The notes beneath the pieces were generated by a model. That model worked only from the letters and a program-made list of their open reading frames with translations. It ran no database searches and had not been told where the DNA came from. Position numbers and translations under genes: made by a program. Shown here piece after piece: positions 7,838 through 54,943 of a stretch of DNA of 64,000 nucleotides. This DNA comes from an uncultured Prevotellaceae bacterium (lineage in GTDB: Bacteria; Bacteroidota; Bacteroidia; Bacteroidales; Bacteroidaceae): NCBI GenBank assembly GCA_900557555.1, contig USTH01000001.1:1887-65886 (forward strand), read 5' to 3'. Positions within the stretch are counted from its first letter, which is position 1. Every line of letters starts with the position of its first letter.

Positions 7838-9301
7838 ATGGACTATTCACAATTTCTCAATATGGGTCAGGAGTTATCGCTACTTGCAGTGATAATAATA
7901 TTGTTTGTCGCTGACCTCTTTATGTGTACCGACCGTAAGGATGGCAAGGGTGTGCTCAATACACCACTGCCAGTCATCTTGATGGTTATCCACACAATCG
8001 TAGGTATCTTCCCTTTGCTCACGGTCTGCCCTGGTGACTGCGGATTCGAGACGTGCGCTTTTGGCGGCATGTACGTAGCAAATGCAATGACCACCATTGT
8101 CAAGACCATTATCAACATTGGAACCATCATAGTGTTCCTAACTGCCCACGAATGGCTTAAGTTGCCGGAGTTGGCCAACAAGCAAGGCGAATACTACCTG
8201 CTGACACTCTCTACCCTGCTGGGCATGTATTTCATGGTCAGCGCAGGTCATTTTCTTATGTTCTTCATCGGCCTTGAGCTGGCCTCCGTGCCAATGACAG
8301 CTCTCATAGCCTACTCCAAGAGGTCGCAGGAGAGCGCCGAGGCTTCTGGCAAGTATATTCTGACAGCACTGTTTTCATCAGGCCTGATGCTTTACGGCAT
8401 CTCGCTAATCTATGGCACTGCGGGTACGCTTTATTTCAATCAAGCCGCAGCAAGCATCTGCATGTCCGACCCTGTCCAGATTGCCGCCCTCGTTCTGTTC
8501 ATCGGAGGTATAGGCTTCAAGATTTCGCTCGTGCCTTTCCATCTATGGACAGCCGACGCATATCAGGGAGCCCCCACACCCGTTACATCCTATCTCAGTG
8601 TCATCTCAAAGGGTGCGGCAGCATTTGTACTCTTCACCGTACTCTACAAGGTGTTTGCCCCTGTCATTGACCATGCCAACCTTATCTTCTTCTGGATTAT
8701 CATTTTCTCCATAACCATCGCCAACATCTTCGCTATCCGTCAGAACAACCTCAAGCGCTTTATGGCATTCTCTGCCATCAGTCAGGCAGGTTATCTGGTA
8801 CTTGGTGTAATGGGAGCCACACCTCAGGGCATGACAGCCATCGTATACTACCTGCTGGTGTACATGGTGGCAAACCTTGGCGTGTTTCTCATCATCAGCA
8901 TCACCGAGCAACGTAGTGGCAAGATTAACATCTCCGATTACAACGGGTACTACAAGACCAACCCCAAATTGGCTTTCCTTATGACCCTTGCCCTGTTCAG
9001 CCTTGCAGGCATTCCACCGTTTGCGGGCTTCTTCAGCAAGTTCTTCATGTTCATGGCGGCCTTCAAGGCAGGTTTTGCGCTTCTCGTGTTCATCGCATTA
9101 GTCAACACGGTGATATCTCTCTACTACTACCTTCTCATTGTGAAGGCAATGTACATCAATCCCAACGAGAGCCCAATTGCCACTTTCAAGAGCGACGGAT
9201 ATACCAAGGCCGGACTCTTTATCTGCACCGCAGGTGTTGTGTTGATTGGTATCATCAGCTGGTTCTACACCTATATTGGCCAATTCTGCTACGGCATCTA
9301 A
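7838..9301 (+). CDS. nuoN: NADH-quinone oxidoreductase subunit N
   Basis: Antiporter-like subunit ([24 protein letters not shown]). The start is placed at MDYSQFLN (ATG 7838). The longer ORF from 7769 would overlap nuoM with a non-membrane-like peptide. Confidence 0.85.
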
Positions 9302-9410: not shown

Positions 9411-9469
9411 ATATTGTTAACGCATTATTTTTATTGTTGTCAAACCACAAAATCAATTCAGAAATATTT

Positions 9470-9477
9470 TAATTTTG
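9470..9477 (+). promoter_or_regulatory. Bacteroidetes-type -7 promoter box (TAATTTTG)
   Basis: Matches the TAnnTTTG consensus, 45 nt upstream of ATG 9522. Confidence 0.35.
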
Positions 9478-9521
9478 TCAAGAGAATGTTTTTAGATATT
9501 ATCAACCAAAACATTAGTCTT

Positions 9522-10127
9522 ATGAAACGATTACTACCAATTATTTCGATTGTCACAGGCCTACTTTTTGTCTCGTGTTCCAAATCCCTTACAGACATAG
9601 GCTACAAGCCGGCATCCATAGGAACAATCAATGCCACTAAGGCTTCTGTTTTTTACACTGACCACTCTGGCTCATATTACACCACAAGCATGGCAGCAAC
9701 CTACACTGGTCCTACATACCAATACTATAACAACCCATATACGCAAAACACCAACATGGGAGACATCAACATGGACTTATTGGAAAAGACTGCAATGAAG
9801 GACTGTATTTCTTTTATTGATAAATTCTACAGCAGACTGTTGTCACAGAAATTCAACGCCAAGCAATTCTCAAAGAAATACAAGCCCTCGTGCATCAACC
9901 AAATTAATAACATCGTAGACTCTTTGGCCTTGAGCGGCGACAAAATGGGGGGATGGCAGGTGTTTACCAACAAAGGCTTTGAGCCAGGAATGAAATACAA
10001 CATTGCATACGACAAAGAAGCATGGTTCATAGTCAGCCGCAGAGACAACCCTGATATACACATCTCTGTGCAGATGATTGTGAGCGACCTCAACAAAAAG
10101 CCCCTCATCACAGGAATCAGATACTAA
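9522..10127 (+). CDS. Lipoprotein of unknown function, distant paralog of a domain in the 420-aa lipoprotein at 14328-15590
   Basis: Start is set at MKRLLPIISIVTGLLFVSCSK (signal peptide plus lipobox Cys). The C-terminal segment F.DKFYSRLL...GGWQVF...ISVQMIV...ITGIRY parallels ...GGWQILKP...VSIKVEY...IVGVRN in the 420-aa lipoprotein. Confidence 0.7.
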   Translation: MKRLLPIISIVTGLLFVSCSKSLTDIGYKPASIGTINATKASVFYTDHSGSYYTTSMAATYTGPTYQYYNNPYTQNTNMGDINMDLLEKTAMKDCISFIDKFYSRLLSQKFNAKQFSKKYKPSCINQINNIVDSLALSGDKMGGWQVFTNKGFEPGMKYNIAYDKEAWFIVSRRDNPDIHISVQMIVSDLNKKPLITGIRY

Positions 10128-10149
10128 ACAGTGGGAGGGCAAATATAAA

Positions 10150-10332
10150 CCCAAATCGGTCATTAGGTCGTATTTGATATGTTTTCATAACTTCTTGTTG
10201 CCTTTTGTTTTTTATAAGGCATCTGGCGCCTGTTTTTTGCTCGAAATAGCCCGCTATTACTCACAAAAACAGCAAGCGACATCTGCTCTCCTAAAAATTC
10301 AAAATACAATAAGTCCTAACGACCAAATTGGG
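10150..10332. mobile_element. MITE-like non-autonomous element, full-length copy (~183 bp)
   Basis: Left TIR cccaaatcggtcattaggtcg (10150-10170). Right TIR gtcctaacgaccaaattggg (10313-10332) is its imperfect reverse complement. The structured interior is homologous, in opposite orientation, to the copy at 58921-59100. No coding capacity. Confidence 0.7.
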
Positions 10333-10420
10333 ATAAACGACTAACACTATTTTGTCAGACTACTTAGATGGTCAATGTTGTTGAGGAAATGTGCAGTTTG
10401 GCACGAACCACCCACATGCA

Positions 10421-10890
10421 GTTTTATCATTCCTCTAAAAATCTTTGGGGACAATAGTCCACGTTGCGAATGGGATTTTTTATTCCCATTATAGCCGGAC
10501 ATACCCACGACCCATAGAGCACCACCTTGAGCTTGAGGCTCTTGCCACCTGACTTCGGGGCGGTCACCTGATACCAATCCTTTCCCAGATAGGTCACATC
10601 ATAGCCACCTTGGGCGAACTCACGGTAAGAACAGGGCAAAAACATGTCTGCCCTATTGTCTTTCTTGGCAATCTGGCTGTCTGCCATAGCCACCAAGCGT
10701 TGAGGCAAGGAGTAGAAATAGCTCTTGCGAAGCTTCTTGAGATTATTATCCGAAGACAGCAGATTATTATAGAACTGACGTACGAATGCCATCCTACGCT
10801 CGTTAACCTTGGTAGCGAAGCGGTCGAAGTCTGCCTCGGTCACTAGTAACCGTCTCCCGGTTTCTTTGTAAATTATCGGACAAAGATATT
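10421..10890. repeat. Direct repeat, copy A (~470 bp, ~97% identical to 14322-14791)
   Basis: Aligned by eye at a constant offset of 3901 bp with about 14 mismatches. Positions 10569-10807 show no mismatch. The repeat covers the 3' ~430 bp of the lipoprotein gene, the ATGA junction and the first 4 codons (MIKL) of the downstream gene. Confidence 0.9.
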
Positions 10891-11731
10891 CTAAAAACAT
10901 ATAATCTTTGTCATTTGTCGAGAACCCCCACATCTTGCTACCAACATTTGCTTTGTAGCTTGTGTCAATAACGTCTACGTTCATTTTTTGGTTTTTAACT
11001 CCCACAATAACAGGATTTAGGTATTTTCCGGTATACATTATTTTTACAGAAACAGTGTCGTTACCTTTTGGCAAGAAGATGTCATACCACCCATTGCCTT
11101 AGTATTCCACTTTATATAGTGTTGGATCCTTATCTATACCTTCGGTTGGCTTAAATATCTGCCAGCCAGCTAAATCAGAAAAGATGTTTTTGCATTTAAC
11201 AGCCTTTACTTTGTCTTGTATGACATGCGAGACCATTGGCAAGTATGCCTTGGAGAACACATCATACACAAAATCGCTCCTGCTCATCATTGCTACCATC
11301 TTGCATATATCTTTTCTTGTAACTTCCTGCATACTCTCTTTAAATTTTTCCATATCGCATTCCGAGACATAGCCTTCGGGACAAAATACTGCATAACTAT
11401 AGTCTCTCAACAAATAGTGCGTGTGTGTAGTAGCATGTTGAACAGGAAAACGAAGAGGGGTATTACCGTTATAACTACTTTGGGTTGCAGTACCTTCAAA
11501 ACTACCTTGGCTAAAAACAATCGTACCCTCAAAATTAGGAGGTCTGGTACCAAAAGCAACTTGATCCGGTGTTATGTCTGCTGTCGTTGCTTTATGTGCA
11601 TAGCTATAATCTATTTTGGGGTCATCAATTTGTATCGTATTAGTATACCCCAAATAACGAAGCTTCCAGTCAGAACACGAAGCAACAATAGACAAGCAAA
11701 TCAACATTACATATTTCAAGAAATATTGCAT
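10427..11731 (-). pseudogene. Tandem-domain lipoprotein paralog interrupted by an in-frame TAA
   Basis: ORFs 11099-11731 and 10427-11074 lie in the same frame and together align along the full 420-aa protein at 14328-15590. TAA at 11099-11101 replaces the Lys codon in KV(K/E)Y-K-NGGW. The signal peptide with lipobox (LSIVASCSD) is intact. Confidence 0.75.
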
Positions 11732-11792
11732 GACACAAGTCTTATTTCTGGTTTCTCATTATAACAACTAACAAAAAATGTCATCACTATAT

Positions 11793-12317
11793 TTATAACA
11801 ATATTCTCTTTCTTGATTGTTGAAATTTTTTTTCTCCCTCACTATCATATCGTGTTATGGTTACTTTGAGCTCTTGAGATAAAGAATCCATTGAGCAATC
11901 GAAATCCATCAGGCCGGAAGAGGATTCTAAAGTAAAATCCTTTGAACCACCAACTATGCCATAGAGACTAAATGGCTCATAATACGTTCCACTTCTTTTT
12001 GTTCCAGAAGGTATTCCTGCACAAGATAACTGAACTCTATCAACTCCTATTTCGGCTTTAGTAACAATAGTGACATCCATATCCTCCACCTTTTCATACG
12101 TAAGTTTAGCACTCCATATAAACGAGCAATCTACATCCCAACTACCCCCATAGGAAGATTGAATCGTGCCATGTCCGCCACCCGATTCACCATAACTTAC
12201 ATTACCTCCGCTCCCTGAGCCAGATCCTTTTTGTGGCATTCTGTTCACTTGTAGTTTGTTTTCTTTTGCATTCTGTTCATTTTCTGCAGAAAATTTAATA
12301 GGTTTAATTGTCTTCAT
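11793..12317 (-). CDS. Gly-rich small protein of unknown function (cassette copy 1)
   Basis: 174 aa with no signal peptide. Paralog of 15575-16168, sharing the core RMP..GSGS...GGGHG...SS(Y/F)GGSWDV.CSF.WS..LTYEKVEDM...YYEPF. Confidence 0.7.
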   Translation of the reverse strand: MKTIKPIKFSAENEQNAKENKLQVNRMPQKGSGSGSGGNVSYGESGGGHGTIQSSYGGSWDVDCSFIWSAKLTYEKVEDMDVTIVTKAEIGVDRVQLSCAGIPSGTKRSGTYYEPFSLYGIVGGSKDFTLESSSGLMDFDCSMDSLSQELKVTITRYDSEGEKKFQQSRKRILL

Positions 12318-12360
12318 AAATCCATATAATTTAATGGTTAATAATAATTTCTTTGCAATG

Positions 12361-12368
12361 CAAATATA
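12361..12368 (-). promoter_or_regulatory. Bacteroidetes-type -7 promoter box (TATATTTG on the minus strand)
   Basis: TAnnTTTG match 44 nt upstream of ATG 12317, with a TTTG further upstream. It lies in the 109-nt AT-rich gap after the GT gene stop. Confidence 0.4.
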
Positions 12369-12426
12369 GTATTATATTTAACGTAAAATAAACAAACAGG
12401 AAACTTTTTCATACATCAAAATATTT

Positions 12427-14331
12427 TTAGTTACAATTCATCATTCGCACAAGTTTTCCTGCGAGTCCATGACATAATGAAAGATCATTGTCAACAGAAT
12501 TCATGACAAACTTCGCTAACGAAATGGCAGGTTTCTCGTATTTCCCTATTCGCATATGCTCAAATACCACAGTTTGTCGCCTCAAACTATCTGAAATATT
12601 GATAGGCAGTTGGTTTATGGCTTCACGTATCTCAGCGAAAAAAGATTCTGCAAAAATACTTTTTCCTTTGTTATTGTACATATGGATGTTGACATACATC
12701 AAAAGTCCTTCCAGACCTTTTTCCAACGTCAAGTCTCTCATACGTAATACGGAGTAATGCATAACCCTCTTATCTATAGCCTCACACACCACAGAAGTAT
12801 CAATATCAACGAGTTCAAGGAAGCGCAAATAATCTAATGCAAAACCGATGCCCAACATGCCCGATTCAAAATCAAGGCTAACGTTGTCTGGAATATTCGT
12901 TATGGTTTTGTTAATGCTAAAGATGCAGAAATCACTAATTGGCGCCACCTTATATTTGTGTGCATACTCCATCAGTGCCACAACTACCCCTATTCTACCA
13001 GTGAGGAAACCTCGCGAAACCATATCATTGCACTTCAACATCAACCTATAGACATCATCTCTGTCAAGTACAGATAAACCATCTTTGTTAGAAACGACAT
13101 CTTTGCCTAATGTCATATCTTCAAACAATCTAAGATACGATTTTTTCATTTGGTTGATGGTATAATGAGCCATATATGTATTGTGGGCATTTACACGCAA
13201 TTGTTGTCGCTGGCTATCATCAAGATGGCACAAGCGTTCGGTTGCCATAATCAGGTTTTGGACATACCTGTTAGGCTTCTCATGATTCTCGATTGGAGCT
13301 ACAACAGCATTATACCCATCACGAAACATAGACCTCAACCCAATACCATCAGATGCGATAATTGGCACTCCGCAAGCAAGCATCTCCACCCCGACATAGC
13401 CAAGCTGCTCACAATAAGACGGGATAATGCCAATGTCTGCGATGTGATACCACATCATCAGTTCAGATTTAGCTACATGCCCCGCATAAATTATCTTGGT
13501 GCGGTTTTTCGGACATAGTCTCAATACAGTTTCTATATCATACACATTGCCCAGTATCACAAGTTTTAGTCTGTGGAAGCGCAATGCCAATTCCTCAAAA
13601 GCACTCAACATAGCCTCGAAGCCCTTGCACTTGGTTGTTCTCCCAACAAACAGCATTATTTGATCATCTTGATTCACACCCAGCAGAGCCTTTATTTTTT
13701 CTTTGTTTTCACTTTGCAGAGAGTGAATCTCTCTACCATGAGGAATGAAACTTATCTTCTGTTTGTCAACTTCATAGATTGTCTTTAACAGTTCCATCGT
13801 ATCACGATTCAAGACAATCACCCGACCCGCAAGTTGATACATCTCCTTTTCACGCACCGCCAAACGTTTCAGCATGAGATACCTACCTGTACCATCTCCC
13901 TGAGAATCTGATTCGTTCATGATAGTTTTGAATTTCTCTATATCACCAAGAAGTCTCTCAGTCCATATTTGGTCATGAATAATAAAGACAGTCTTTGACA
14001 ATGGAAAATATTCTTTCAGTCCTCTCAACAATGCGTCACAGAGGAAATAATTCAACAAGAATACATTCTCTTCGGCATCATTCACCTCCATTCTTATAAT
14101 AGAAAGACCTATCTCATAATTATCCAAAAATGCACCTCCACAGAAAAATGGAAATCGCATATAAGTCACACCATCTCTATCTTCCTTCTGAAAGGAGCTA
14201 ACACTATCATTAAACGATAATATCGTAATCTGTATCTCCTCTGACAGGCATTGACACAGATCAAAAACATATGTGCCAATTCCATTTTGGGAGGAATTGG
14301 CACATTCATCGAAAACATACAGTTTTATCAT
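12427..14331 (-). CDS. Glycosyltransferase (GT-B, GT4/GT1-like) fused to a C-terminal LanC-like repeat domain
   Basis: Start is set at MIKLYVFDE (ATG 14331), which overlaps the upstream TGA as ATGA. The N-terminal ~410 aa carry GT-B hallmarks (LFVGR...KG, EQLGYVGVEMLACGVPIIASD). The C-terminal ~225 aa carry repeated G..G helix motifs (GRIGVVVAL, GMLGIGFAL, GLEGLLMY) and a terminal LCHGLAG. The GT call is confident and the LanC-like call is tentative. Confidence 0.65.
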   Translation of the reverse strand: MIKLYVFDECANSSQNGIGTYVFDLCQCLSEEIQITILSFNDSVSSFQKEDRDGVTYMRFPFFCGGAFLDNYEIGLSIIRMEVNDAEENVFLLNYFLCDALLRGLKEYFPLSKTVFIIHDQIWTERLLGDIEKFKTIMNESDSQGDGTGRYLMLKRLAVREKEMYQLAGRVIVLNRDTMELLKTIYEVDKQKISFIPHGREIHSLQSENKEKIKALLGVNQDDQIMLFVGRTTKCKGFEAMLSAFEELALRFHRLKLVILGNVYDIETVLRLCPKNRTKIIYAGHVAKSELMMWYHIADIGIIPSYCEQLGYVGVEMLACGVPIIASDGIGLRSMFRDGYNAVVAPIENHEKPNRYVQNLIMATERLCHLDDSQRQQLRVNAHNTYMAHYTINQMKKSYLRLFEDMTLGKDVVSNKDGLSVLDRDDVYRLMLKCNDMVSRGFLTGRIGVVVALMEYAHKYKVAPISDFCIFSINKTITNIPDNVSLDFESGMLGIGFALDYLRFLELVDIDTSVVCEAIDKRVMHYSVLRMRDLTLEKGLEGLLMYVNIHMYNNKGKSIFAESFFAEIREAINQLPINISDSLRRQTVVFEHMRIGKYEKPAISLAKFVMNSVDNDLSLCHGLAGKLVRMMNCN

Positions 14332-14791
14332 TCCTCTGAAAATCTTTGAGGACAATAGTCCACGTTGCGAATGGGATTTTTTATTCCCATTATAGCCGGG
14401 CAGACCCACGGCCCATAGAGCACCACCTTGAGCTTGAGGCTATTGCCACTTGACTTCGGGGCGGTCACTTGATACCAATCCTTTCCCAGATAGGTCACAT
14501 CATAGCCACCTTGGGCGAACTCACGGTAAGAACAGGGCAAAAACATGTCTGCCCTATTGTCTTTCTTGGCAATCTGGCTGTCTGCCATAGCCACCAAGCG
14601 TTGAGGCAAGGAGTAGAAATAGCTCTTGCGAAGCTTCTTGAGATTATTATCCGAAGACAGCAGATTATTATAGAACTGACGTACGAATGCCATCCTACGC
14701 TCGTTAACTTTGGTAGCGAAGCGGTCGAAGTCTGCCTCGGTCACAAGTGACCGCCTCCCGGTTTCTTTGTAAATTATCGGACAAAGATATT
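14322..14791. repeat. Direct repeat, copy B (partner of 10421-10890)
   Basis: See copy A. It covers the 3' end of the intact lipoprotein gene and the true 5' end of the GT fusion gene. Confidence 0.9.
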
Positions 14792-15590
14792 CAAAAAACA
14801 TGTAATCATCATCGTACAGAGTATAACCCAACATCTTGTTTGTGTTTTTGGGTTTGTAACCAACATCGCAGATGTCTATATTCATTTTTCTATTTCTGAC
14901 ACCCACTATTACAGGGTTGAGATGCTTACCCGAATACTCCACTTTTATAGATACTGTATCTGTTTCTCCTTGGCAGAAAATATCAAACCACCCTCCGTTT
15001 TTGTATTTCACTTTATAAAATGTCGTTTCATTGTCTACTCCATTTGTAGGTTTAAGAATCTGCCAACCACCTAAGTCACGATATTGATTGTTGCTAACAA
15101 CGGATTCAATCTTCTTCTTAACACTGGCAGACAAATATGGCATATACATCTTGTTAAACCTGTCATAGACGAAAACATTCTTATCCATTGCCGCAAGCAT
15201 TCTCAAGAGACACCTTCTTGTGACCTTATGCATTAGGTCTTTCAGTTTCTCTATGTCATACTCCGACACATATCCTTCTGGGCAAAACACTGCATAGCGG
15301 TAGTCTCGTAGCAGATAGTGACCATGTGTATTACCACCAAGACCATAAAAGTGTCGATATCCCATTATACTGCTACCTTCATATTGTCCGTCCCGTCCAT
15401 AGTCCGTTTTATCTCCCAGCGAACGCATTAGGACAAACTCATTGGGAGCTCTGCCCCATTCTCCGTAATCTATTTTAGGGTCATAACCACCCCAATAAGT
15501 GTATCCCAAATACTGATACCTTCTTTCAGTACAAGAGAACAACAGGTGCAGCACGAAGCCAAGAATAATGACTTTTAAGAAAGTACGCAT
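14328..15590 (-). CDS. Tandem-domain lipoprotein of unknown function (cassette copy 2, intact)
   Basis: 420 aa with signal peptide and lipobox (LHLLFSCTE). Two internally similar halves each end in ...GG(W/Y)...strand-rich segment...(V/I)(V/M)G(V/I)(R/K)N. The C-terminal ~145 aa are nearly identical to the paralog at 10427-11074. Confidence 0.8.
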   Translation of the reverse strand: MRTFLKVIILGFVLHLLFSCTERRYQYLGYTYWGGYDPKIDYGEWGRAPNEFVLMRSLGDKTDYGRDGQYEGSSIMGYRHFYGLGGNTHGHYLLRDYRYAVFCPEGYVSEYDIEKLKDLMHKVTRRCLLRMLAAMDKNVFVYDRFNKMYMPYLSASVKKKIESVVSNNQYRDLGGWQILKPTNGVDNETTFYKVKYKNGGWFDIFCQGETDTVSIKVEYSGKHLNPVIVGVRNRKMNIDICDVGYKPKNTNKMLGYTLYDDDYMFFEYLCPIIYKETGRRSLVTEADFDRFATKVNERRMAFVRQFYNNLLSSDNNLKKLRKSYFYSLPQRLVAMADSQIAKKDNRADMFLPCSYREFAQGGYDVTYLGKDWYQVTAPKSSGNSLKLKVVLYGPWVCPAIMGIKNPIRNVDYCPQRFSEE

Positions 15591-16168
15591 GACATAAGTC
15601 TTATCTCAGGTTTATTACCGGAATCATTAATAAAAAAAATGAATTCCATACCTATTCGCTTCTTTTCTGTTTTTGTTGTTGAAGAAATTTCCTTGCCATT
15701 CTTATCATATTCTCTTACTACAACTTTAAATTCTTCCTCTGAAGTATTTGTAGACCAAGCAATGTCATGCAAGCCCATTGAAGACTCCTTCATACTTCCA
15801 TCCGAGCCAACGTTCATACCCTGGTTAAACGGCTCGTAATATTTGCCATCTACAGTTGTTCCGGCTGGCACACCACGACAAGATACAACAATATTACTAA
15901 GGGTTACAACTGCCTTAGTAACAACAATCGCATTCATGTCCTCAACTTTTTCGTATGTAAGTTCTGAAGACCACCGAAAAGAACAACTGACATCCCACGA
16001 GCCACCAAAGGACGAAGAAACAGAACCATGTCCTCCACCATAATCATTACCTTTAATGGTTTCTTCACTTCCAGAGCCACTTGGTGGCATTCTCTTTACA
16101 TGTACCTCGGTCTTGTTTGCGTCACACTCTCTCTGTACAGAAAAACTCGCTGATTTAATCTCTTTCAT
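15575..16168 (-). CDS. Gly-rich small protein of unknown function (cassette copy 2)
   Basis: 197 aa with no signal peptide. Paralog of 11793-12317. A ~24-aa C-terminal extension reads through sequence that is intergenic in copy 1 and overlaps the lipoprotein start by 16 nt. Confidence 0.7.
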   Translation of the reverse strand: MKEIKSASFSVQRECDANKTEVHVKRMPPSGSGSEETIKGNDYGGGHGSVSSSFGGSWDVSCSFRWSSELTYEKVEDMNAIVVTKAVVTLSNIVVSCRGVPAGTTVDGKYYEPFNQGMNVGSDGSMKESSMGLHDIAWSTNTSEEEFKVVVREYDKNGKEISSTTKTEKKRIGMEFIFFINDSGNKPEIRLMSCVLS

Positions 16169-16217
16169 TACACAATAATTTTTACAGGTTAAACAATAAG
16201 ATTTTATTTACACTCTG

Positions 16218-16225
16218 CAAATATA
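16218..16225 (-). promoter_or_regulatory. Bacteroidetes-type -7 promoter box (TATATTTG on the minus strand)
   Basis: TAnnTTTG match ~50 nt upstream of ATG 16168, in the 170-nt AT-rich gap downstream of the LRR gene. Confidence 0.4.
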
Positions 16226-16338
16226 ATTATTTATTTTTACAAACAGAGTTTTATTAACGAAAAACGATACAACGGAGACTGTAGGGCAAACTTTTCTGTC
16301 TGTCCATGTTTTCTTCCAAGAACCGATATTCCCTATCC

Positions 16339-18813
16339 TTACTTCACCACAATTTTCTTTGACACCACGCACTGTCCGTCAACTGCTGTGATGACATAGA
16401 CACCTGCTGACAGTGACGGCAGAGAAGTCCACCCTCTGGCATTGGCAGAACCGTGCCAAAGAGTCTGTCCGCTGAGCGAGGTCAGGCGACACACTGCATC
16501 AGGGGCAACACCTTTTACCATAAGCTGCGTGACATTGCCATAGGCACGAGTGAGAACACTCGGTGTGGCATTATCGTCTGTCGGGCCACCGATACCGACG
16601 GCGTCAGGTGAAGTAAAGCGAGATGTTGCACCGTAGGTGATGCCTTTTTCGGTAGTAGCGAAAGCACGGTAACAATATGTCGTGTTAGGACTAATATCAG
16701 TAAGGGCCACGTCCATGGCGTCATCTGCAACAAGGAGCACTTGAACAGCACTTGGGAACGAAGGGCTTTGGACACCGCCGTCCCTGACAGCCCAATACTC
16801 GAAACCCCGTCTGACAATCTTGTCGGAACCTGCAACAACGAAGCCCTTGAGCCATACGATGTCATCCTCTATGGTGTAGGTTGAAGTATATACATCCGGC
16901 TCAAAGTATACGTAGGCGTCGGCAGTTCCAAATGCCAGCCATTCACCAAAATAGTAAGTTCCGTCGCTGTCCTTGTAGTACGGGCGGTATTTGTAATAGG
17001 TGTTGACATTAAGGTTTTTCAACGAGCCCGACATCTTGCCGTTGATAATGGGGCAATCTGAATAGGTGGATGGCACAAGGTCGGGGGCATCATAGCGCCG
17101 CCACTCAAAGCCTCCGCCTTTTGAGGCTTCGCAGTTTGTGGTGGCACAGATGCGTGCCGTGTGGTCTGACACACATTCGGCAGGCAATGTGGTTATAGTG
17201 ACAGATTTGGTCGTGACAGATGAATATGCAGAGTAGCTCACTCTTCCGTTGCACTCCACACAAAAACGTGCTTTGTAGGTTGAGTTGGGTTTAAGCCCTT
17301 CTGCAGCAAACTTTGTGCTGTTGGTCCACTGCACCTTGCCGTTCCATTCCCAGCCCCAACGGTGGGCCACAGCGTCCAGCTTAGTCCAAGAGCCTTCAAA
17401 GGCTGCTGTTGTCACCCCCGAAGAGGTGGAGGTTACTACAGGCTCCAGGCCTTTCATGTTTCCCGAAGAGCTATAGCCTTCATATATTTTCCCATTATAA
17501 ACAGCATAGGTTCTTACTGAATAATATCCACCAGGGGGAAAGCCCGTAACCTTAACCACATCAGCAGCCTTTTTGCCTTGTGGCAAACGAGTTCCGTCAG
17601 ATAATATTACTCCCACCTCCGAGGGCTTTACGTACTTGTCTTCCAAAGCAGAGACACGCCCTGTCACGTATGTTTGTCCCACCGACGTTATTGCTATATT
17701 GCTATAAAAACCTCCGTTTTCGAAATGCTCCAGTGTATCTCGTTTTCCGCCAAGAGTATATATCACTTGTACTTCAAATCCATCAAGCCCTGCGTTTTCA
17801 AGCACATAATGGTTTGTAGAGTCCAATCTGCAGGGACGTCCGTTGCACGTTGTGCTCTCCACTTTTATCATATTCTTGTTGTAAGGATTTACTATAGAAT
17901 CAAGGGCAAACATACATTTATTGAAGCCACCACCATAAGTAGTGTTTATTGACAAACAGTATTTGCGAGTGAAAGAGAAGTTTCCCTTGAGCTTTTCAGC
18001 CATATTAGGATATGCATAAGTAAACGTGTATTTGCTGATACCGTTTTTGTTAATAAGGGAATATGCAAGGTTGTCTATATCTTCTGCATCAACATAGATG
18101 TTCCTTATGTTACTTCCGAAGCAGGCTTCGTCGCACACTCGACTCACCTTGTCAGTTATTATCAAATCTTTATTGGCAGGCGGAACAAGAACTAAAGGCT
18201 TTTTGTTGTTAGCCGAAGCCACCTGTTCGTAAACATACCCATCGACCCCTGTGGCATAAAACAATGATTTGACTATGACGTTTTTTAGATTATAGCAATT
18301 ACCAAATGGCTTTATGTTAAGTTTTTGGATATTTTCGCCGATATAGATTGTTTCGATATTACTGTTAAAGAATGCAGCGACTCCGATTTCCTTAACATTA
18401 CGATCTTTGGGGAAATATACCGTTTTTATGGCTTTGTTGTCATAAAAAGCCCTTGTAAGATCATTGCAGTAATAATGCACCTTGCCGTTTACTTTTTTAT
18501 TGCCGTTCGTTTCACTTGTATAATATAGATACACGCCAGAGCCTCCATAGTAACAATCTCCTCCGCTTGAAATTTTGGCATCTGACAAATCAAGAATCTC
18601 AAGGTTTGACAGTCTGTTAATTTCATTTATATCCGAACCATTTATCGGCCCACTGAGTTTTAACTCTGTAACCTCTCCGTTGTCGGTCCCCTGCAGACGT
18701 GTAGAAAGGGTTCCGGCAGTAGTCAAAGTGACACTCAGTTTTTCTGCCTTCATTGGTGCAATAAATACCAACAACACACAGAAAAGAATCTTAACGACAT
18801 TTGAGCTTCGCAT
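16339..18813 (-). CDS. BspA-type leucine-rich-repeat surface protein with FN3/Ig-like repeats and a T9SS C-terminal sorting domain
   Basis: 824 aa with a signal peptide. N-terminal LRR region (LSNLEILDLSDAKI; VKEIGVAAFFNSNIETIYIGENIQKL..FGNCYNLKNV). Repeated ..P(N)T.Y.YR..-type beta-sandwich modules follow. The C-terminus ...SAGVYVITAVDGQCVVSKKIVVK is typical of T9SS sorting domains. Confidence 0.8.
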   Translation of the reverse strand: MRSSNVVKILFCVLLVFIAPMKAEKLSVTLTTAGTLSTRLQGTDNGEVTELKLSGPINGSDINEINRLSNLEILDLSDAKISSGGDCYYGGSGVYLYYTSETNGNKKVNGKVHYYCNDLTRAFYDNKAIKTVYFPKDRNVKEIGVAAFFNSNIETIYIGENIQKLNIKPFGNCYNLKNVIVKSLFYATGVDGYVYEQVASANNKKPLVLVPPANKDLIITDKVSRVCDEACFGSNIRNIYVDAEDIDNLAYSLINKNGISKYTFTYAYPNMAEKLKGNFSFTRKYCLSINTTYGGGFNKCMFALDSIVNPYNKNMIKVESTTCNGRPCRLDSTNHYVLENAGLDGFEVQVIYTLGGKRDTLEHFENGGFYSNIAITSVGQTYVTGRVSALEDKYVKPSEVGVILSDGTRLPQGKKAADVVKVTGFPPGGYYSVRTYAVYNGKIYEGYSSSGNMKGLEPVVTSTSSGVTTAAFEGSWTKLDAVAHRWGWEWNGKVQWTNSTKFAAEGLKPNSTYKARFCVECNGRVSYSAYSSVTTKSVTITTLPAECVSDHTARICATTNCEASKGGGFEWRRYDAPDLVPSTYSDCPIINGKMSGSLKNLNVNTYYKYRPYYKDSDGTYYFGEWLAFGTADAYVYFEPDVYTSTYTIEDDIVWLKGFVVAGSDKIVRRGFEYWAVRDGGVQSPSFPSAVQVLLVADDAMDVALTDISPNTTYCYRAFATTEKGITYGATSRFTSPDAVGIGGPTDDNATPSVLTRAYGNVTQLMVKGVAPDAVCRLTSLSGQTLWHGSANARGWTSLPSLSAGVYVITAVDGQCVVSKKIVVK

Positions 18814-25136: not shown

Positions 25137-25216
25137 CCCAATTCGGTCGTTACGACTTTTTGTATTTTACAAGGCAATATGAAAGATGTCTTTTACGACC
25201 TAATGACCGATTTGGG
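25137..25216. mobile_element. MITE-like element, internally deleted copy (~80 bp)
   Basis: Left TIR cccaattcggtcgttacgac and right TIR cgacctaatgaccgatttggg. The short interior, ttttgtattttacaaggcaa, resembles ttttgttttttataaggca of the full copies. Confidence 0.6.
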
Positions 25217-25401
25217 TAAAACTTCCAGACTGGGTTTCCACCTCACACGGAGTATTCTGCATGTTGACAGTCAACACAATCCACTACCGTCTAAAACAAT
25301 CAACGAACACTTCTATGGCTCTAAAACTGCCCATCAATCTCGAATACATGAACCAATGAAAAAAAAGTGCATAACAAACTGCCGTTTGTCGTAAAATCTA
25401 C

Positions 25402-26848: not shown

Positions 26849-26870
26849 AAAAATTCTAAAATGGCTTTAA

Positions 26871-26908
26871 CCCAAATCGGTCATTAGGTCGTAAATAACC
26901 GATTTGGG
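26871..26908. repeat. MITE-like family, minimal TIR-TIR copy (38 bp)
   Basis: cccaaatcggtcattaggtcgtaaataaccgatttggg. The outer 11 bp are perfectly self-complementary. Confidence 0.65.
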
Positions 26909-26997
26909 TTTAACCAACTGTTTTTTCAGCAAAAAAATGCTGAATGAGGCTCTGTTGAGTGTAACACAACAGTGGCAAAGCTCTCATAGTGGTGCCA

Positions 26998-27648: not shown

Positions 27649-29100
27649 TTAATCTATTGTGTATTTTGTTATGCCAAACACCTTTCGGCGGTTGCCGCCT
27701 GTTTTATCCTTCACATACTGTTGGCCATAAACGATATAGTTGTTGTCGTACCAATAGGATGTTGTCGGCGCTTTCATTTTCTTGACATTCAGATTTTCAT
27801 CACCAGCCTCGATAATTTCAGCCTCTTTCTCTTGAATCACATTGCCATCGTTAAGAGCCACTATCTTGCTGACCAGCTTCATGCGATCGGCATATACCAA
27901 GCTTACATTGCCTTTGTCGAGCCCCATTGAAGCAAAGTGCACAACACTGTACGGACGATTCTTTGGGAACATCGGGAAGCAAGTGTCCCACAGCAGGTCT
28001 CCCTGTGCATTGAACTTAACCAACACTGCATGAGTGTATTGGTATCCATTGAAACTTGTGATGATGGCGTTGCCCTGACGGTATGTTATGTAAGTAGGGT
28101 AATAGGCTTCGCCAAGATAATAATAATCTTTGCCGTCAAACACTATGTCGTGGCTTGCCATGAGGTAGTTTAGTGCATACTCCTTGTCCTTTTTTTCGGC
28201 CTTTTCTTTCTTACGTTCTATCTTTTTCTGTTTCTTTTCAGACATGAACTCTGTGAAGTTTTTCAGATCAAGGAAATTGTAGGATTTATAGAATGCAAAC
28301 TCGCCATTGTCAAGAGCAGCGAAATAGATGCCCTGCGAGTTGCCTTTCTTTGACTTGGTATATGTTCCGGTTACAAATATACGTCCACCAGTGTCACTGA
28401 TGCTGGCAGAAGTGATGGCCTCACCGTCAGCAGGTGTGATCTCGGTCACCCCTACCATGTTTCCGTCCATGTCGGTGCGCACAAGCATTGTGTGGCCTTC
28501 CACATTAACAAAAGCGAGCACATTGTCCTTGACTATTGCAGTGGCAAAAATCAAGGTGTTGCGGTCTTTCACACCGGGAAAATGCAAGTTGAGAGCCTTT
28601 ATTTGCCCACTTGCCAGATTAAAGATATTTAATGTCTCTGTCTTTTTGTCGGTAGAGGCAAACACCATACAACCAGAGCCGAAACTGGGCCAACGTATGC
28701 TGAACTTACTCTTGAGCATTGCGTTGTAAACTGACGTTTTGTTTGTCTTGGTGTCAAACGCCAACACCTTGAGGTTGTCATCTCTGTCACGCCACACCGA
28801 ATAGTTGATCCCGTCAACATAATCGCTACATTCATCGGTCATTTTCTTTGGAATAGAGAAAGTTTCTGTTCCAAGGAGTTTCATGTCGGTAGAATATAGT
28901 TCTGATTTTACGGTGCGTTTGCCGTCATCGGCATCCTTTGAGCGTGTCTGCACAAGCAGGCCTTTGTTGCCAAGCGGATAAACGCTCTCGTCTTCAAAGT
29001 CATCGTTTGTAGGACACTCTATTCGCCCCACGGCTTGCGACATTACAGGCAATTCAAACAGGAATGTCGCCAATGTCAATAACAATAATTTCAATTTCAT
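27649..29100 (-). CDS. Secreted protein of unknown function
   Basis: 483-aa ORF with a signal peptide (MKLKLLLLTLATFLFELPVMSQA), mostly beta-type sequence and an internal Lys/Glu-rich tract (SEKKQKKIERKKEKAEKKDKE). I recognise no family. Confidence 0.6.
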   Translation of the reverse strand: MKLKLLLLTLATFLFELPVMSQAVGRIECPTNDDFEDESVYPLGNKGLLVQTRSKDADDGKRTVKSELYSTDMKLLGTETFSIPKKMTDECSDYVDGINYSVWRDRDDNLKVLAFDTKTNKTSVYNAMLKSKFSIRWPSFGSGCMVFASTDKKTETLNIFNLASGQIKALNLHFPGVKDRNTLIFATAIVKDNVLAFVNVEGHTMLVRTDMDGNMVGVTEITPADGEAITSASISDTGGRIFVTGTYTKSKKGNSQGIYFAALDNGEFAFYKSYNFLDLKNFTEFMSEKKQKKIERKKEKAEKKDKEYALNYLMASHDIVFDGKDYYYLGEAYYPTYITYRQGNAIITSFNGYQYTHAVLVKFNAQGDLLWDTCFPMFPKNRPYSVVHFASMGLDKGNVSLVYADRMKLVSKIVALNDGNVIQEKEAEIIEAGDENLNVKKMKAPTTSYWYDNNYIVYGQQYVKDKTGGNRRKVFGITKYTID

Positions 29101-39440: not shown

Positions 39441-39595
39441 AGGAGAGACCTCCTTTTCTATTTACACAAACACACGACAAATAAGGGTTCAAATCTCGCA
39501 CACAGGCGGATTTGAACCCTTATGTCGTATTATCTTGCCGGGAACAAATTTATTGTCTCAAAGAAACTGACTGCCAGCTTTCTGAAACGATTTAA

Positions 39596-39615
39596 ACCAA
39601 ATCGGTCGTTAAGAC
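39596..39615. repeat. Degenerate solo TIR of the MITE-like family
   Basis: accaaatcggtcgttaagac resembles cccaaatcggtcattaggtc. It lies 20 bp upstream of palindrome array A. Confidence 0.4.
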
Positions 39616-39636
39616 TTATTGAGTTAATCATTGGCA

Positions 39637-43188: not shown

Positions 43189-43992
43189 CTACTTTACTAA
43201 GAAGCATCTGCCCTTGACGACATAGACACCCTTGCCAAGTGAGCGGATATTCCGCGAAGATACCTTTGAAGCCACCTTAACGCCCGAGATATTATAGACA
43301 TCCGTAAGTTCATCGGGCGCCAGTTCACCAGCAACATCCTCCACGCCTGTCATGCTGTAGTCGAGATGATTCGTTCTAAGCGTACTGCTTGTCTCGCCAC
43401 CATTAAGTTTTATGAAGCAGCGTGAAGCGAGAATGCCATTTGGCACTTCGCTAACATCAACAAAGGTTGCTGCAGAGTTATCTTTCACGAGAATGCCGTA
43501 GATGCCTTCAGAACTTCCAGCCTCGGTTGCGCCTCCAAATATCACTGTGGTACCAGTGTTATCCGAAAATTTAAGTTCTACCGGGCCTGTGGATACATGT
43601 GCATCGCTCTGACGTATTTCACGCACTCCGCTTTCAAGGGTAGAATAGAGTATATACGGTGTGTTCGCCTTAAGTCCGTCAGGTTTCACGTCCTTGAAGT
43701 TTAGTTTGGTGGCAACACCCGTGTTTTCCACTCCTACCAAAGTTTCCAGACGGCACTCCTCACCGAAGATGCTGTTGACCTCATCTGTCGTCAACGACAC
43801 CGGCAGGCAGATGGTGTTCCACCCTTTGTGGATAAAGCGGTAGATAGAAAGGTCTATCGTCTGACCGTTATAAGCGGTAAGGTCTTTGGGGCTCACCGTA
43901 TTGGTGACAACCCTCTGCTGTGCGCTAACCGTGTTGAAAGTCATGCATGCCACGGCCACAAGTACCAAGTTCTTCAATGTAATCTTTTTCAT
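43189..43992 (-). CDS. Secreted protein of unknown function with a T9SS C-terminal sorting domain
   Basis: 267 aa with a signal peptide (..NTVSAQQ). The C-terminus DVYNISGVKVA....LGKGVYVVKGRCFLVK is sorting-domain-like. Confidence 0.65.
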   Translation of the reverse strand: MKKITLKNLVLVAVACMTFNTVSAQQRVVTNTVSPKDLTAYNGQTIDLSIYRFIHKGWNTICLPVSLTTDEVNSIFGEECRLETLVGVENTGVATKLNFKDVKPDGLKANTPYILYSTLESGVREIRQSDAHVSTGPVELKFSDNTGTTVIFGGATEAGSSEGIYGILVKDNSAATFVDVSEVPNGILASRCFIKLNGGETSSTLRTNHLDYSMTGVEDVAGELAPDELTDVYNISGVKVASKVSSRNIRSLGKGVYVVKGRCFLVK

Positions 43993-49680: not shown

Positions 49681-49870
49681 GTGCAATTCGAGAGCAGAGT
49701 ATCAAGCCTGCTTGAATGTCCTGCCAAGAAGCACCCTATAATATGCAAAGATAAAGAAATAATGCAATATTACTGCCACAAATCTTACGCTTTTTTACGC
49801 AAACATGTCTGTTCTGACCCAAAAGGTTTCTTTCAGCATACGTCCTTTCTTCCTTTTGGCTTTCATTAAA

Positions 49871-49946
49871 CCCAAATCGGTCATTAGGTCGTAAATGACA
49901 TCTTTTTATTACTTCTTATTGCCTTTTGTTTTTTATAAGGCAACTG
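49871..49946. mobile_element. MITE-like element, truncated copy (left TIR plus ~55 bp of interior)
   Basis: cccaaatcggtcattaggtcgtaaatgac...ttgccttttgttttttataaggcaactg aligns with the left half of the full copy at 10150. Homology stops 3 nt before the mazG stop codon. Confidence 0.65.
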
Positions 49947-49949
49947 CCG

Positions 49950-50744
49950 CTAACAAGTCTCGCCGTCCTGCATCTTTGCCTCGTCCCAGACGGCATCCAT
50001 TTCTGCAAGCGTCATATCCTTTAGGTTACGGCCTTGCTTGAGAGTCTTCTGCTCAAGGTAATTGAAGCGCGAGATAAACTTGCGGTTAGTCCTTTCAAGA
50101 GCTGTGTCGGGATTTATGTGATAGAGACGTGCAGCGTTTATAAGACTAAACATCACATCGCCAAACTCCGCTTCCATCTTGTCTGCATCCATATGTTCCA
50201 CCTCGTCTTGAAACTCTCGTATCTCCTCCTTTACCTTATCCCAAACCTGCGAGCGTTCCTCCCAGTCAAAGCCCACATGGCGAGCCTTGTCTTGAATGCG
50301 ATAAGCCTTTATAAGCGACGGCAAAGAAGCTGGCACGCCCGACAATACGGTCTTGTTGCCGTCTTTTTCCTTCTGCTTTATCTGTTCCCACGTGTCCTCC
50401 ACGGCATCAGCAGTCACGGCCTCCACATTGCCATAAATGTGTGGGTGACGAAAGATAAGTTTCTCACACAAACGGTTGCACACTTCTGCAAAATCAAATT
50501 CTCCTTTTTCTTCTGCAAACATAGCATAAAAGCACACGTGCATCAATACATCGCCCAACTCCTTGCACTCTTCTTTGCTATCTCCACGTATTATGGCATC
50601 GCTCAGTTCAAAAACCTCTTCAATTGTGTTGGGGCGCAAGGACTGGCTTGTCTGTTTGGAATCCCAAGGGCACTTTTGGCGAAGCTCTGCAAGAATATCA
50701 AGCAGACGGTTAAACGATTTCAGTTGTTCTTCTCGGGTTGACAT
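49950..50744 (-). CDS. mazG: Nucleoside triphosphate pyrophosphohydrolase MazG
   Basis: 264 aa with tandem MazG domains (CPWD..QT..SL.P...EE..E, ELGD.L). The C-terminal repeat contains EE..EF. Confidence 0.85.
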   Translation of the reverse strand: MSTREEQLKSFNRLLDILAELRQKCPWDSKQTSQSLRPNTIEEVFELSDAIIRGDSKEECKELGDVLMHVCFYAMFAEEKGEFDFAEVCNRLCEKLIFRHPHIYGNVEAVTADAVEDTWEQIKQKEKDGNKTVLSGVPASLPSLIKAYRIQDKARHVGFDWEERSQVWDKVKEEIREFQDEVEHMDADKMEAEFGDVMFSLINAARLYHINPDTALERTNRKFISRFNYLEQKTLKQGRNLKDMTLAEMDAVWDEAKMQDGETC

Positions 50745-53848: not shown

Positions 53849-54943
53849 TCACTTCTCCATTTTCATTCCCGACAAACTATACGGCGGGGCCCAACTGGTT
53901 GAAACTTCTTCCTGCGTAAGGCTAAACGTGCCAGATCCGTCACTATAGGTGCCGCCCATAGGCGAGGTAAACACCAGAATTTGCGTGCGCACCCTATGTG
54001 TTGACGAATAGTCAAACGAATAAGTGAACATTGCCTTATTTTTTTCTATCTTCATATAGGACGCCCTAAAATTCTTTGCATCCGTGTAGGTCTTCATCTT
54101 ATAATTATGCACGGTATTATTGTCAGCGAACACCACCCACAACGTATAGAGTTTGGGAGTGCCGAGCATAAGCTTATTGTAGTAGAGCTCTTCTGGAGCA
54201 TAGTCTTCGTCAGGCAAAGCTTTACCCTCAATTCTGAACGTACCGTTTTCACCATTCCCAGTGTAGGTGCCCGTGTTTTCGTCGTTGAACTTCAGAATGT
54301 AGTTTCTCATGAGGTCCAGTTTGTGTCCGTCCGTATAACTTACCGTCATCCATACCAGATCAAGATCTTTACGTTCCCATCTCACCTGCTGGAGTTGCGG
54401 ATTGGTTTCACCGCCCAGCTTCAAGATTTCTGCCACCATTGAATGTGTGAGCTGCACTTCGTTGTTGCCCCACACCAGCTTGCGACCAATGATATCCTTA
54501 GGGGCATATTTCTGGTACTGCCGGTCGGTGCTGCGCACAAAATGTATGGTCATGTCCCCCAAATTCTTGTCTTTATAAGTCCATGTCATCATCTGTTTCT
54601 GCACATTCACCATTTTCATCTTGTATACTGTGATGCCGCTGTTGTCCTCACATGTCAGGGTGCCGTCGCCATTGTCACGCCAAGTGCCGTAGACGCTGCT
54701 TCCGTTCTTGTAGACAATAAACGTGTTGTCAGACTTGAAATCCATGTAGAAATCGCCAGACTCATACCACGCCGCCTGTTCCTTGTTGTTGGCATCTTTC
54801 CATGAAACCATATACACAGACCATTCGCCTACAATTTTGGAACCCGTAATATCATCAGACTTTCCGCCGTCACCGCTGCCAGAACACGACAGCATCACCG
54901 CAATGCCCAACAAGCACAAAAAATTAAATGTAGCTTTCATCAT
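53849..54943 (-). CDS. Lipoprotein with repeated lipocalin-like modules, unknown function
   Basis: 364 aa with signal peptide and lipobox (VMLSCSGSG). Repeated (I)VG.W / GTW / GTY beta-rich modules are present. Confidence 0.6.
   Translation of the reverse strand: MMKATFNFLCLLGIAVMLSCSGSGDGGKSDDITGSKIVGEWSVYMVSWKDANNKEQAAWYESGDFYMDFKSDNTFIVYKNGSSVYGTWRDNGDGTLTCEDNSGITVYKMKMVNVQKQMMTWTYKDKNLGDMTIHFVRSTDRQYQKYAPKDIIGRKLVWGNNEVQLTHSMVAEILKLGGETNPQLQQVRWERKDLDLVWMTVSYTDGHKLDLMRNYILKFNDENTGTYTGNGENGTFRIEGKALPDEDYAPEELYYNKLMLGTPKLYTLWVVFADNNTVHNYKMKTYTDAKNFRASYMKIEKNKAMFTYSFDYSSTHRVRTQILVFTSPMGGTYSDGSGTFSLTQEEVSTSWAPPYSLSGMKMEK

Follow-up and report, generated by a model that had tools for sequence, protein, structure and literature searches.

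The closest described relatives of the system considered here are the 'GG-Bacteroidales' clusters for peptides made on ribosomes and modified after their translation (RiPPs), radical S-adenosylmethionine (rSAM) clusters known by the families TIGR04149, TIGR04148, TIGR04150 and TIGR04157, which are themselves experimentally uncharacterised. Our subject is an AT-rich locus in a 64-kb stretch of DNA from an uncultured Prevotellaceae bacterium (contig USTH01000001.1; the whole stretch is referred to as the window, and coordinates given without a locus name refer to it), which encodes a small protein (S), a lipoprotein (L) and a glycosyltransferase (GT) fused to a LanC-like domain (GT::LanC). The RiPP clusters have been surveyed (PMC10352776, PMC4573289), and the LanC-like genes of Bacteroidales were described in 2023 as non-canonical, without the catalytic residues or Zn triad and lying beside carbohydrate-active enzymes (CAZymes) in rSAM RiPP regions, with LanB reported absent from Bacteroidales genomes and never accompanying LanC-like genes there (PMC10352776). 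The order precursor, lipoprotein and modification enzymes has been described for one TIGR04149 cluster (PMC4573289). Our locus is like these clusters in its nearest GT family, in the pairing of that GT with a LanC-like protein which, as is seen there beside CAZymes, has no Zn triad, and in sharing the gene order of that one cluster. It is unlike them in that the window has no rSAM maturase, pseudo-rSAM protein, beta-propeller or ATP-binding transporter which contains a peptidase (PCAT), in that S is a folded protein of ~200 amino acids (aa) without a double-glycine leader whereas the TIGR04149 precursor has ~50 aa, and in that the GT and LanC-like parts are fused and the GT scores below the TIGR04157 cut-off.

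Further comparisons can be made with bacteriocin-immunity and polymorphic toxin-immunity cassettes, e.g. the contact-dependent inhibition (CDI)/Rhs orphans and the orphan-immunity islands of Bacteroidales, and with the GT4 enzymes (SdgA/SdgB and GtfA/GtfB) which O-glycosylate Ser-rich or Ser-Asp repeat proteins in the cytoplasm. Peptides are glycosylated in the glycocins by SunS-type enzymes, and glycocin transferases belong to GT2. As in SdgA/SdgB and GtfA/GtfB, a predicted cytoplasmic GT4 is encoded here beside a protein with an invariant Ser/Thr-Gly repeat, and the GT gives a weak NCBIfam match to SdgA (E 2e-4), but this similarity is that of GT4 enzymes generally, S has just a short repeat (2-8 SG units), an accessory Sec system is absent, and glycosylation of S is putative.

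Recurrence and distribution of the S-L-GT module

Hidden Markov models (HMMs) were built for S and L and for the GT and LanC-like domains, all fetched loci were searched with them, and the matches were combined with the called genes. GT was found beside S and/or L in seven loci, down to ~25% identity in L. The window has a leucine-rich repeat (LRR) protein followed by S, L, GT::LanC, a frameshifted S and an L with a stop codon, and L001 has LRR, S, L, GT::LanC and S. GT::LanC, S, L and nuoN make up L006, where the 569-aa open reading frame (ORF) which opens the locus is the fusion according to the HMM survey, ruling out an LRR identity for this ORF. The more divergent loci have S, L and GT (L018, with S and L from distant branches), S and GT (L019), L and GT::LanC (L017, with an L only ~25% identical to the intact lipoprotein of the window, L2) and L ... 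GT (L014); the distant S proteins in L018 and L019 were shown by hhalign to be true homologs (96.4%, E 1e-9). S and L without GT were found in four distinct neighbourhoods: beside relA (S and L only; L004 and L005), beside tuf (S, L, S, L; L008 and L023), between lptD and recG (S and L only; L024) and in L025, which like L013 has S and L; L009 and L010 contain S-L arrays.

Because divergent loci repeatedly contain S, L and GT together and the order of the genes takes several forms, their adjacency is not a matter of chance, and S-L-(GT) is a dedicated module, as the tight coupling of the three genes had suggested in the preliminary description of the window, which was made without database searches. 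The alternative, that unrelated hypothetical genes lie together in an AT-rich junk island, would account for S and L having no family and for one cassette having decayed, but is scarcely credible and is already contradicted by the co-occurrence, as GT recurs over the range of divergence given above, the S-to-L overlap is kept in at least nine independent loci from several neighbourhoods, and invariant motifs are kept in both the S and L families. The membership of the module is narrower than had been proposed. GT is absent from several well-flanked S-L loci and is therefore accessory, and tailoring by it cannot be essential. The LRR protein adjoins the module only in the lineage of the window (L001 and L007), its place in L006 is taken by the GT fusion, and unrelated neighbours are found in other loci, which makes it a neighbour and not a part of the module.

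The module is rare and fast-evolving, and occurs in gut and rumen Bacteroidales. When 1.84 billion representatives were searched exhaustively with an HMMER profile, S proved to be a tiny family of 31 proteins; a word-indexed search gave only four S clusters among 5.8 billion proteins, and a metagenome scan with an S sub-alignment found nothing; L is represented by 26 clusters. S was absent from the plasmid and phage collections, and L and GT from IMG/VR. Between the window and L006, nuoN is 89% identical compared with 36% for S, 51% for L and 44% for GT, and the identities between the window and L001 are 78% for the heptosyltransferase and 73% for the LRR protein compared with 47% for the intact small protein (S2), 46% for L and 49% for GT, with the first S of L001 closer to the second small protein of the window (S1, 71% identity). 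Several of the contigs with Bacteroidales-type genes (nuo operon, T9SS-style lipoproteins; T9SS, type IX secretion system), including L009 and L012, sit in metagenome-assembled genomes (MAGs) labelled Lactococcus garvieae or Anaerovoracaceae, and these labels are probably binning errors. The S-L-S-L array of L023 (1-7605) adjoins a transposase (DDE_Tnp_1_6), Fic-domain proteins, a helix-turn-helix (HTH) protein and a Schlafen/AlbA_2 ATPase, a gene content by which its neighbourhood can be classed as a putative mobile or defence-like island.

The GT::LanC-like enzyme, the small protein and the lipoprotein

The N-terminal 405 residues of the fusion are a GT4 domain for which TIGR04157 is the best family (308.4 bits, with the next family at 84 bits). 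Residues 3-402, counted from the GT ATG, align with positions 1-405 of the 406 in the model, making the match colinear and full-length, with a score which is below the curated cut-off of 400 bits and thus does not make the protein a member of the family. Both residues of the EX7E motif (E308 and E316) are invariant among the window, L017 and L001 proteins, and the GT4 is predicted to be catalytically intact and cytoplasmic.

The C-terminal ~210 residues had been described as LanC-like and thiol-chemistry-like. The first label is weak for the window protein itself (PF05147, 16.1 bits compared with a gathering score of 23.2) and gains its support through homologs, with 25.2 bits for the L017 protein (a full-length homolog, 39% identical), 23.1 bits for a stand-alone protein from Parabacteroides distasonis, and the hhalign comparison given below. 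The second cannot be upheld, as the Zn-ligand triad of LanC (Cys...Cys-His) is absent: the window protein has just a C-H pair at its extreme C-terminus, and L017 has S-T. The domain is like the LanC cyclases (PF05147) in having repeated Gly-containing helix motifs and Pfam matches at profile positions 2-138 and 243-276, but it is short (~210 aa compared with a profile of ~350), the Zn ligands are not conserved, it has no WCxG motif, and no LanB or LanM dehydratase was found among the scanned window ORFs. Searching the 5.8-billion-protein set with this domain alone returned no homolog.

An annotated cluster on the P. distasonis plasmid NZ_OY725758 encodes, in order, a TIGR04149 precursor, an rSAM maturase, a TIGR04150 pseudo-rSAM protein, a beta-propeller, a 245-aa protein, a TIGR04157 GT, a GT2, beta-propellers and a PCAT, and the 245-aa protein directly upstream of the TIGR04157 GT is homologous to the LanC-like domain of the window (BLASTP E 5e-7; hhalign 97%, E 1e-10). 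Since the GT is closest to TIGR04157 and its LanC-like tail is homologous to the product of the adjacent gene, the window enzyme is a fusion of two neighbouring genes of the TIGR04149/TIGR04157 rSAM RiPP system. This links the fusion, for which no described system had been proposed, to one which is described and uncharacterised. It should be noted that TIGR04149, the rSAM maturase, TIGR04150 and PCAT were found neither in the window nor in the flanks of the related loci, so that the neighbourhood of a TIGR04157 gene is not reproduced there, and that the 64-kb window contains no rSAM gene.

S proteins are nearly always 194-217 aa long and begin with a conserved tag of ~13-17 aa. In S2 a PP-SGSGS linker joins the tag (MKEIKSASFS...) to an all-beta domain, and the family alignment shows an N-terminal M-K-K-I-x-P-V-x-F-S-x-E, a Pro-rich turn and an invariant SGSGS-type linker, followed by GG-x-W...C-x-F-x-W, a variable beta-rich body and a C-terminal P-x-I-x-x-x-S-C-x-I. 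Mean pairwise identity is 43% over the first 13 residues and 38% over the linker compared with 17-23% over the beta domain, a pattern of conserved N-terminal and variable C-terminal parts like that of RiPP precursors. The AlphaFold2 (AF2) model of S2, made from a shallow alignment, is all-beta with residues 1-32 disordered (pLDDT 68, pTM 0.60). A TIGR04149-type precursor was considered and ruled out for S on its length, the lack of a GG leader and the failure of any leader model to match; the TIGR04149 precursor core on the P. distasonis plasmid (L026, 4185-4337) ends in ...LSASYGGN, which recalls the near-invariant S motif (I/V)-x-S-S-(Y/F)-G-G-S-W after the linker, as a single example which may be due to chance. 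We also considered whether S might end in a CaaX-like motif (C-x-x-x), and dropped this because many members have longer tails and the Ser-Cys codons also encode the overlapping start of L.

L proteins are all ~400-450 aa long. They have an L-x-S-C lipobox with near-invariant S19 and C20 after a predicted helix at 2-19, which by inspection would make them bacterial lipoproteins, followed just past the Cys by a conserved Y-L-G-Y-T, a stretch which is disordered and variable, the segment H-x-H...F-C-P-E-G-Y-V-S-E, which is strongly conserved, and two domains. These are homologous to one another (hhalign 97.9%, E 4e-13), and each is modelled by AF2 (pLDDT 74) as helices packed on a 4-5-stranded sheet. 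The start codon of L (ATG) falls within Ser-Cys codons (TCATGC) near the C-terminus of S, as can be read directly in both window cassettes (the overlap of S2 and L2 is 16 nt), and an overlap of this type was deduced in L004 from the 22-nt overlap of the S and L ORFs; L is predicted to be translationally coupled to S. A more distant L branch (~25% identity, with the start '...SCSKSLTDLGY') forms arrays of two to seven tandem paralogs in rumen MAGs. Seven are found in L016 (2295-10996) and two in L015 (9617-12244), both from Prevotellaceae/Bacteroidales rumen MAGs and with no S or GT nearby. A one-domain member of this branch is encoded beside the locus in the window (hhalign 92%, E 6.5e-7, with a further match by HMM), and Pfam, NCBIfam, PADLOC and PHROGs scans of it were empty.

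That S and L match no family, as first thought, was borne out by Pfam, NCBIfam, PADLOC, PHROGs and PDB sequence searches, which gave no significant match to either (at most, the S profile matched low-complexity linkers in PDB sequences; no L cluster has a Pfam domain), and by Foldseek searches with the AF2 models (PDB and BFVD for S, PDB for L), in which there was no match at E <= 1e-3 and TM-scores were 0.1-0.3. The pore-former look-alikes of S and the cystatin/NTF2-like and MlaC/Ttg2D-type lipid-binding look-alikes of L which headed these lists are non-significant and are not used here as evidence.

Two alternatives draw in part on such matches. An intracellular conflict or anti-phage role, with S as a latent and possibly membrane-active beta effector silenced by its N-terminal segment or by glycosylation and the GT belonging to the 'GT4 in conflict systems' group, would be in keeping with the fast evolution of the module, the long beta-hairpins of the S model and its pore-former matches, and a PF20706 score for the GT which is just over the cut-off (29 compared with 26 bits). 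We regard this as highly improbable, as generic GT4 models outscore PF20706 by far, PADLOC finds only the GT, and that weakly (HEC-06, E 0.022), the fold matches have TM-scores of 0.1-0.2, the module was not found on phages or plasmids, and an exported lipoprotein partner is atypical of abortive-infection effectors. The other alternative is a glycolipid or lipopolysaccharide (LPS) envelope module in which GT::LanC builds or edits a lipid-linked glycan, L binds or shuttles lipid in its NTF2/MlaC-like cups and S is an accessory. The locus does abut heptosyltransferase and lipid A acyltransferase genes, GT4 families which make glycolipids are among the lower NCBIfam matches, the top fold matches of L, weak as they are, include lipid binders, and LanC-like proteins near CAZymes have been read as glycan-handling (PMC10352776). 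However, this neighbourhood is not conserved (relA, tuf or lptD/recG are found elsewhere), the GT is far nearer to TIGR04157 than to any lipid GT (<=84 bits), the fold matches are not significant and the tag and payload architecture of S is given no role, and we consider a glycolipid function quite unlikely.

Cassette duplication, recombination and decay

The ORFs and overlaps reported earlier for the minus strand are all present at the positions then given (Table 1), and the locus is indeed an AT-rich stretch between nuo and LPS genes, with a GC content of 0.35-0.42 inside and ~0.50 in these flanks. It contains two S-L cassettes, of which that with S2 and L2 is intact and is followed by GT::LanC, the TGA of L2 and the ATG of the GT sharing ATGA at 14331-14328.

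Table 1. Features of the S-L-GT locus and its immediate surroundings (window coordinates).
Feature	Position	Strand	Remarks
LRR/T9SS protein, 824 aa	16339-18813	-	BspA-type LRR; lineage-only neighbour of the module
TATATTTG box, Bacteroidetes -7-type	16218-16225	-	Candidate by position, 50 nt upstream of S2 ATG
S2 (= P2), intact, 197 aa	15575-16168	-	ORF map and family alignment
L2, intact lipoprotein, 420 aa	14328-15590	-	Lipobox LFSC, ~85-aa disordered region, two tandem alpha+beta domains
GT::LanC-like fusion, 634 aa	12427-14331	-	GT4 part ~13117-14331; half-size LanC-like part ~12430-13059
TATATTTG box	12361-12368	-	44 nt upstream of S1 ATG
S1 (= P1), frameshifted S2 paralog	11716-12317	-	Annotated ORF ends at 11793; intact reading continues to 11716, overlapping L1 start
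L1, L2 paralog with in-frame TAA (11099-11101)	10427-11731	-	Intact allele P0006
Near-identical tract shared with 14315-14790	10414-10890	-	Second L domain and first ~5 GT codons
GT 'MIKL' remnant, 4 codons	~10414-10429	-	Near-identical tract ends ~15 nt into GT gene
MITE-like intergenic repeat	~10145-10337		Bounds locus
One-domain lipoprotein ...FVSCSKSLTDIGY...	9516-10127 (ORF 9414-10127)	+	Distant L relative

S1 and S2 are paralogs (45% identity, E 4e-46), and in a global alignment the two cassettes have ~55-65% DNA identity over ~1.6 kb, from the promoter region through S and the first L domain, before an abrupt rise to 95-100% (57-60/60 per block) over ~475 nt (14790-14315 = 10890-10414). 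This near-identical segment is a recent recombination or gene-conversion tract, and its end ~15 nt into the GT gene explains the four-codon GT remnant behind cassette 1, so that the duplicated S and L cassette with its remnant, as first reported, stands. The in-frame stop reported in L1 is also real, with TAA where the intact allele has Gln. S1 on the other hand had been taken as an intact ORF (12317-11793), and is frameshifted: relative to the intact allele P0004 it has lost 1 nt at an A8T3 junction (~11823-11825), so that the last ~30 residues are missing and S1 does not overlap the start of L1 as it normally would. Cassette 1 has thus decayed through both a frameshift and a nonsense codon.

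S genes have been broken repeatedly, in S1, in L007 and in L004/L005. The L007 ortholog of S2 (~10380) has T7 in place of T8 in the sole homopolymer of the gene, which shifts the frame of the C-terminus, and this frameshifted version is the P0001 form, with 62 member sequences in its 90%-identity cluster. In L004 (9392-10022) and L005 (3459-4089), which are two independent assemblies, S is split into ORFs of 88 aa and 132 aa when judged against the intact 208-aa P0045, and L is kept intact. Each window S gene has one 8-nt homopolymer in its 3' part (T8 at 15632-15639 in S2 and A8T3 at 11823-11833 in S1), and these are the only A/T runs of at least 7 within 10.4-16.2 kb. The frameshifts at S homopolymers could be slipped-strand on/off switching or plain decay. 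One L homolog (P0013) is annotated as an in-frame fusion in which the initial ~22 residues of an S-type tag (MKKIINVGFASANEKETPQIIGV) precede the L signal peptide, and this looks like a deletion remnant of S. The GT::LanC-like gene of L001, a Hadza-gut contig, appears to be interrupted at both ends (8082-8506 and 10077-10263), as its N-terminal ~110 codons are not in frame and the last LanC-like segment is preceded by a stop codon, and this could be an assembly error (coverage is 3.4x) or decay. Across the loci, S-L cassettes are found alone or in tandem arrays, and they swap segments through recombination and undergo decay.

Such changes are also what a variable surface or envelope structure might undergo, with no killing involved, if L were a surface or outer-membrane lipoprotein, S a (glyco)protein bound or displayed by it, and cassette changes (duplication, recombination and on/off frameshifts) a form of antigenic or phage-receptor variation. 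The AT-rich, hypervariable and duplicated cassettes, the frameshifts which affect both S genes at or next to 8-nt homopolymers (T7 for T8 in L007, and the A8T3 junction in S1), the long disordered tether behind the L lipobox and the presence of a T9SS surface adhesin and of LPS-core genes beside the locus are all in keeping with this explanation, which we think possible though doubtful. S has no export signal, so that display would need another route, an acidic surface-export motif like the lipoprotein export signal (LES) is not evident in the alignment after the lipobox Cys, and the RiPP-cluster ancestry of the GT fusion is left unexplained. Nor was an invertible promoter found: there are no inverted repeats flanking the S2 promoter, and at S1 just two short imperfect pairs (13-18 nt, 78-85% complementary), which were not taken as such repeats.

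Tandem S-L arrays and L-only arrays are also to be expected if S were a cargo effector of a secretion system (e.g. the Bacteroidales type VI secretion system, T6SS), with the tag as its loading signal, L as periplasmic immunity protein, the L-only arrays as orphan immunity genes and the GT as a passenger or auxiliary. The conserved tag and variable payload, the Sec signal on L and its absence from S, the repeated order of effector then immunity gene with overlap, and the Fic/HTH/transposase island beside L023 can be read in this way too. We judge an effector of this kind unlikely, as T6SS, VgrG, Hcp, PAAR and adaptor genes are absent from all flanks examined, S has no recognisable toxin domain, and the adjacency of S and GT and of L and GT in very divergent loci is unexpected for a passenger.

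The remaining features of the window concern the surroundings and control of the locus. The LRR protein is a surface protein as had been proposed, with an LRR_5 match (PF13306, 34.1 bits) and a C-terminal T9SS sorting domain (TIGR04183, residues 770-824, 28.9 bits compared with a cut-off of 23) which marks it as T9SS cargo. The two promoter boxes noted upstream of S2 and S1 (TAnnTTTG) are well placed, and as this 8-mer is common in the window (63 matches compared with 43 expected) only the position of the boxes is suggestive. Scans for sigma-70 and terminator consensus sequences were at background level, and searches of the window for Rfam families and tRNAs were empty. The element likened to a miniature inverted-repeat transposable element (MITE) is a dispersed intergenic repeat of ~190 nt (MITE- or REP-like; REP, repetitive extragenic palindrome) with further copies at 49867-49950 (89%) and 58916-59105 (74%) and fragments near 25137-25217, 26869-26912 and 39590-39621. 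Four further sizeable window ORFs (27649-29100, 43189-43992 and 53849-54943 on the minus strand and 58826-60112 on the plus strand) had no Pfam match at E <= 1e-5, and the last may not be a gene as it overlaps a MITE copy and an antisense ORF.

Candidate function and significance

Our preference, which is a tentative one, is for an antagonism module with optional glycosylation, in which the GT would tailor S, a tagged payload, and L would be an envelope partner or immunity protein. We favour this because the tag and payload design, the arrays of the partner alone, the cassettes in tandem or in decay, the tracts of recombination and the rapid divergence together resemble what is seen in bacteriocin- and polymorphic toxin-immunity loci, where a conserved N-terminus and variable payload are likewise combined with an overlapping downstream partner. 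A linked downstream partner, tandem and orphan cassettes and a divergence faster than that of the flanking genes were all found here. The preliminary description had offered surface modification or antagonism, and it is the latter option which these features fit, with the function itself remaining putative.

Under the antagonism model, S would be a 'tag + payload' protein handled by a RiPP-like logic: GT::LanC would recognise S in the cytoplasm, probably via the tag or linker, and then glycosylate it, with the invariant Ser/Thr-Gly linker as the most likely site. L would be exported as the cognate envelope partner of S, made in a fixed ratio with it, and would most likely shield the producer (immunity) or receive or anchor S, and the diversity of the cassettes would reflect inter-bacterial antagonism or a similar conflict. 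The locus as a whole can then be read as a tag- or leader-directed tailoring enzyme with partner or immunity cassettes, and may be a variant on that plan, with the S-L pair perhaps something categorically new; S and L belong to no described family.

A number of observations weigh against this model. S has no Sec, Tat or T9SS signal and no hydrophobic signal sequence. Ten S N-termini compared with NCBIfam at E <= 10 matched no leader family (including TIGR04149 and TIGR01847), and a double-glycine leader does not describe S, whose Gly-Ser run follows Pro/Ser-rich residues and is unlike a GG site with hydrophobic residues at -4, -7 and -12. Compared with toxin-immunity loci, S has no recognisable toxin domain in family and fold searches and no delivery or pre-toxin domain, and no export machinery or associated secretion genes were found in the flanks examined, nor any PCAT or other transporter in the 64-kb window. 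There is no GT within 8-10 kb of three well-flanked S-L loci (L004, L023 and L024), and the authors of the LanC-like survey suggest that these proteins are glycan-handling (endoglucanase-like) and not peptide-binding (PMC10352776). L has a mean identity of 44-68% in the close family and is not obviously more variable than expected of a specific immunity protein, the AF2 models of S and L are of moderate confidence with no significant fold match, and the glycosylation, secretion and toxicity of S are putative.

A more specific proposal, and a distinctly doubtful one, is that the module represents a new class of Bacteroidales antagonism in which RiPP logic is applied to a whole folded protein. 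Here, the tag and SG linker would direct GT::LanC to glycosylate a hypervariable beta-domain toxin of ~150 aa, which would then be released, the cognate two-domain L would neutralise it in the producer, and the tandem and orphan cassettes would serve as an exchangeable repertoire.

If the antagonism model is true, the module would be a new diffusible or contact weapon, or a variable surface system, in gut and rumen Bacteroidales, and would add two new protein families with clear partner relations. It would also provide a first functional handle on the widespread and uncharacterised pairs of non-canonical LanC-like proteins and GTs in Bacteroidales RiPP clusters, as the fused enzyme has an obvious candidate substrate, S, encoded next door. 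Even without a function, the overlap of Ser-Cys codons and ATG, the tag-linker-payload design and the dynamics of the cassettes make this a tractable small system for rapid co-diversification.

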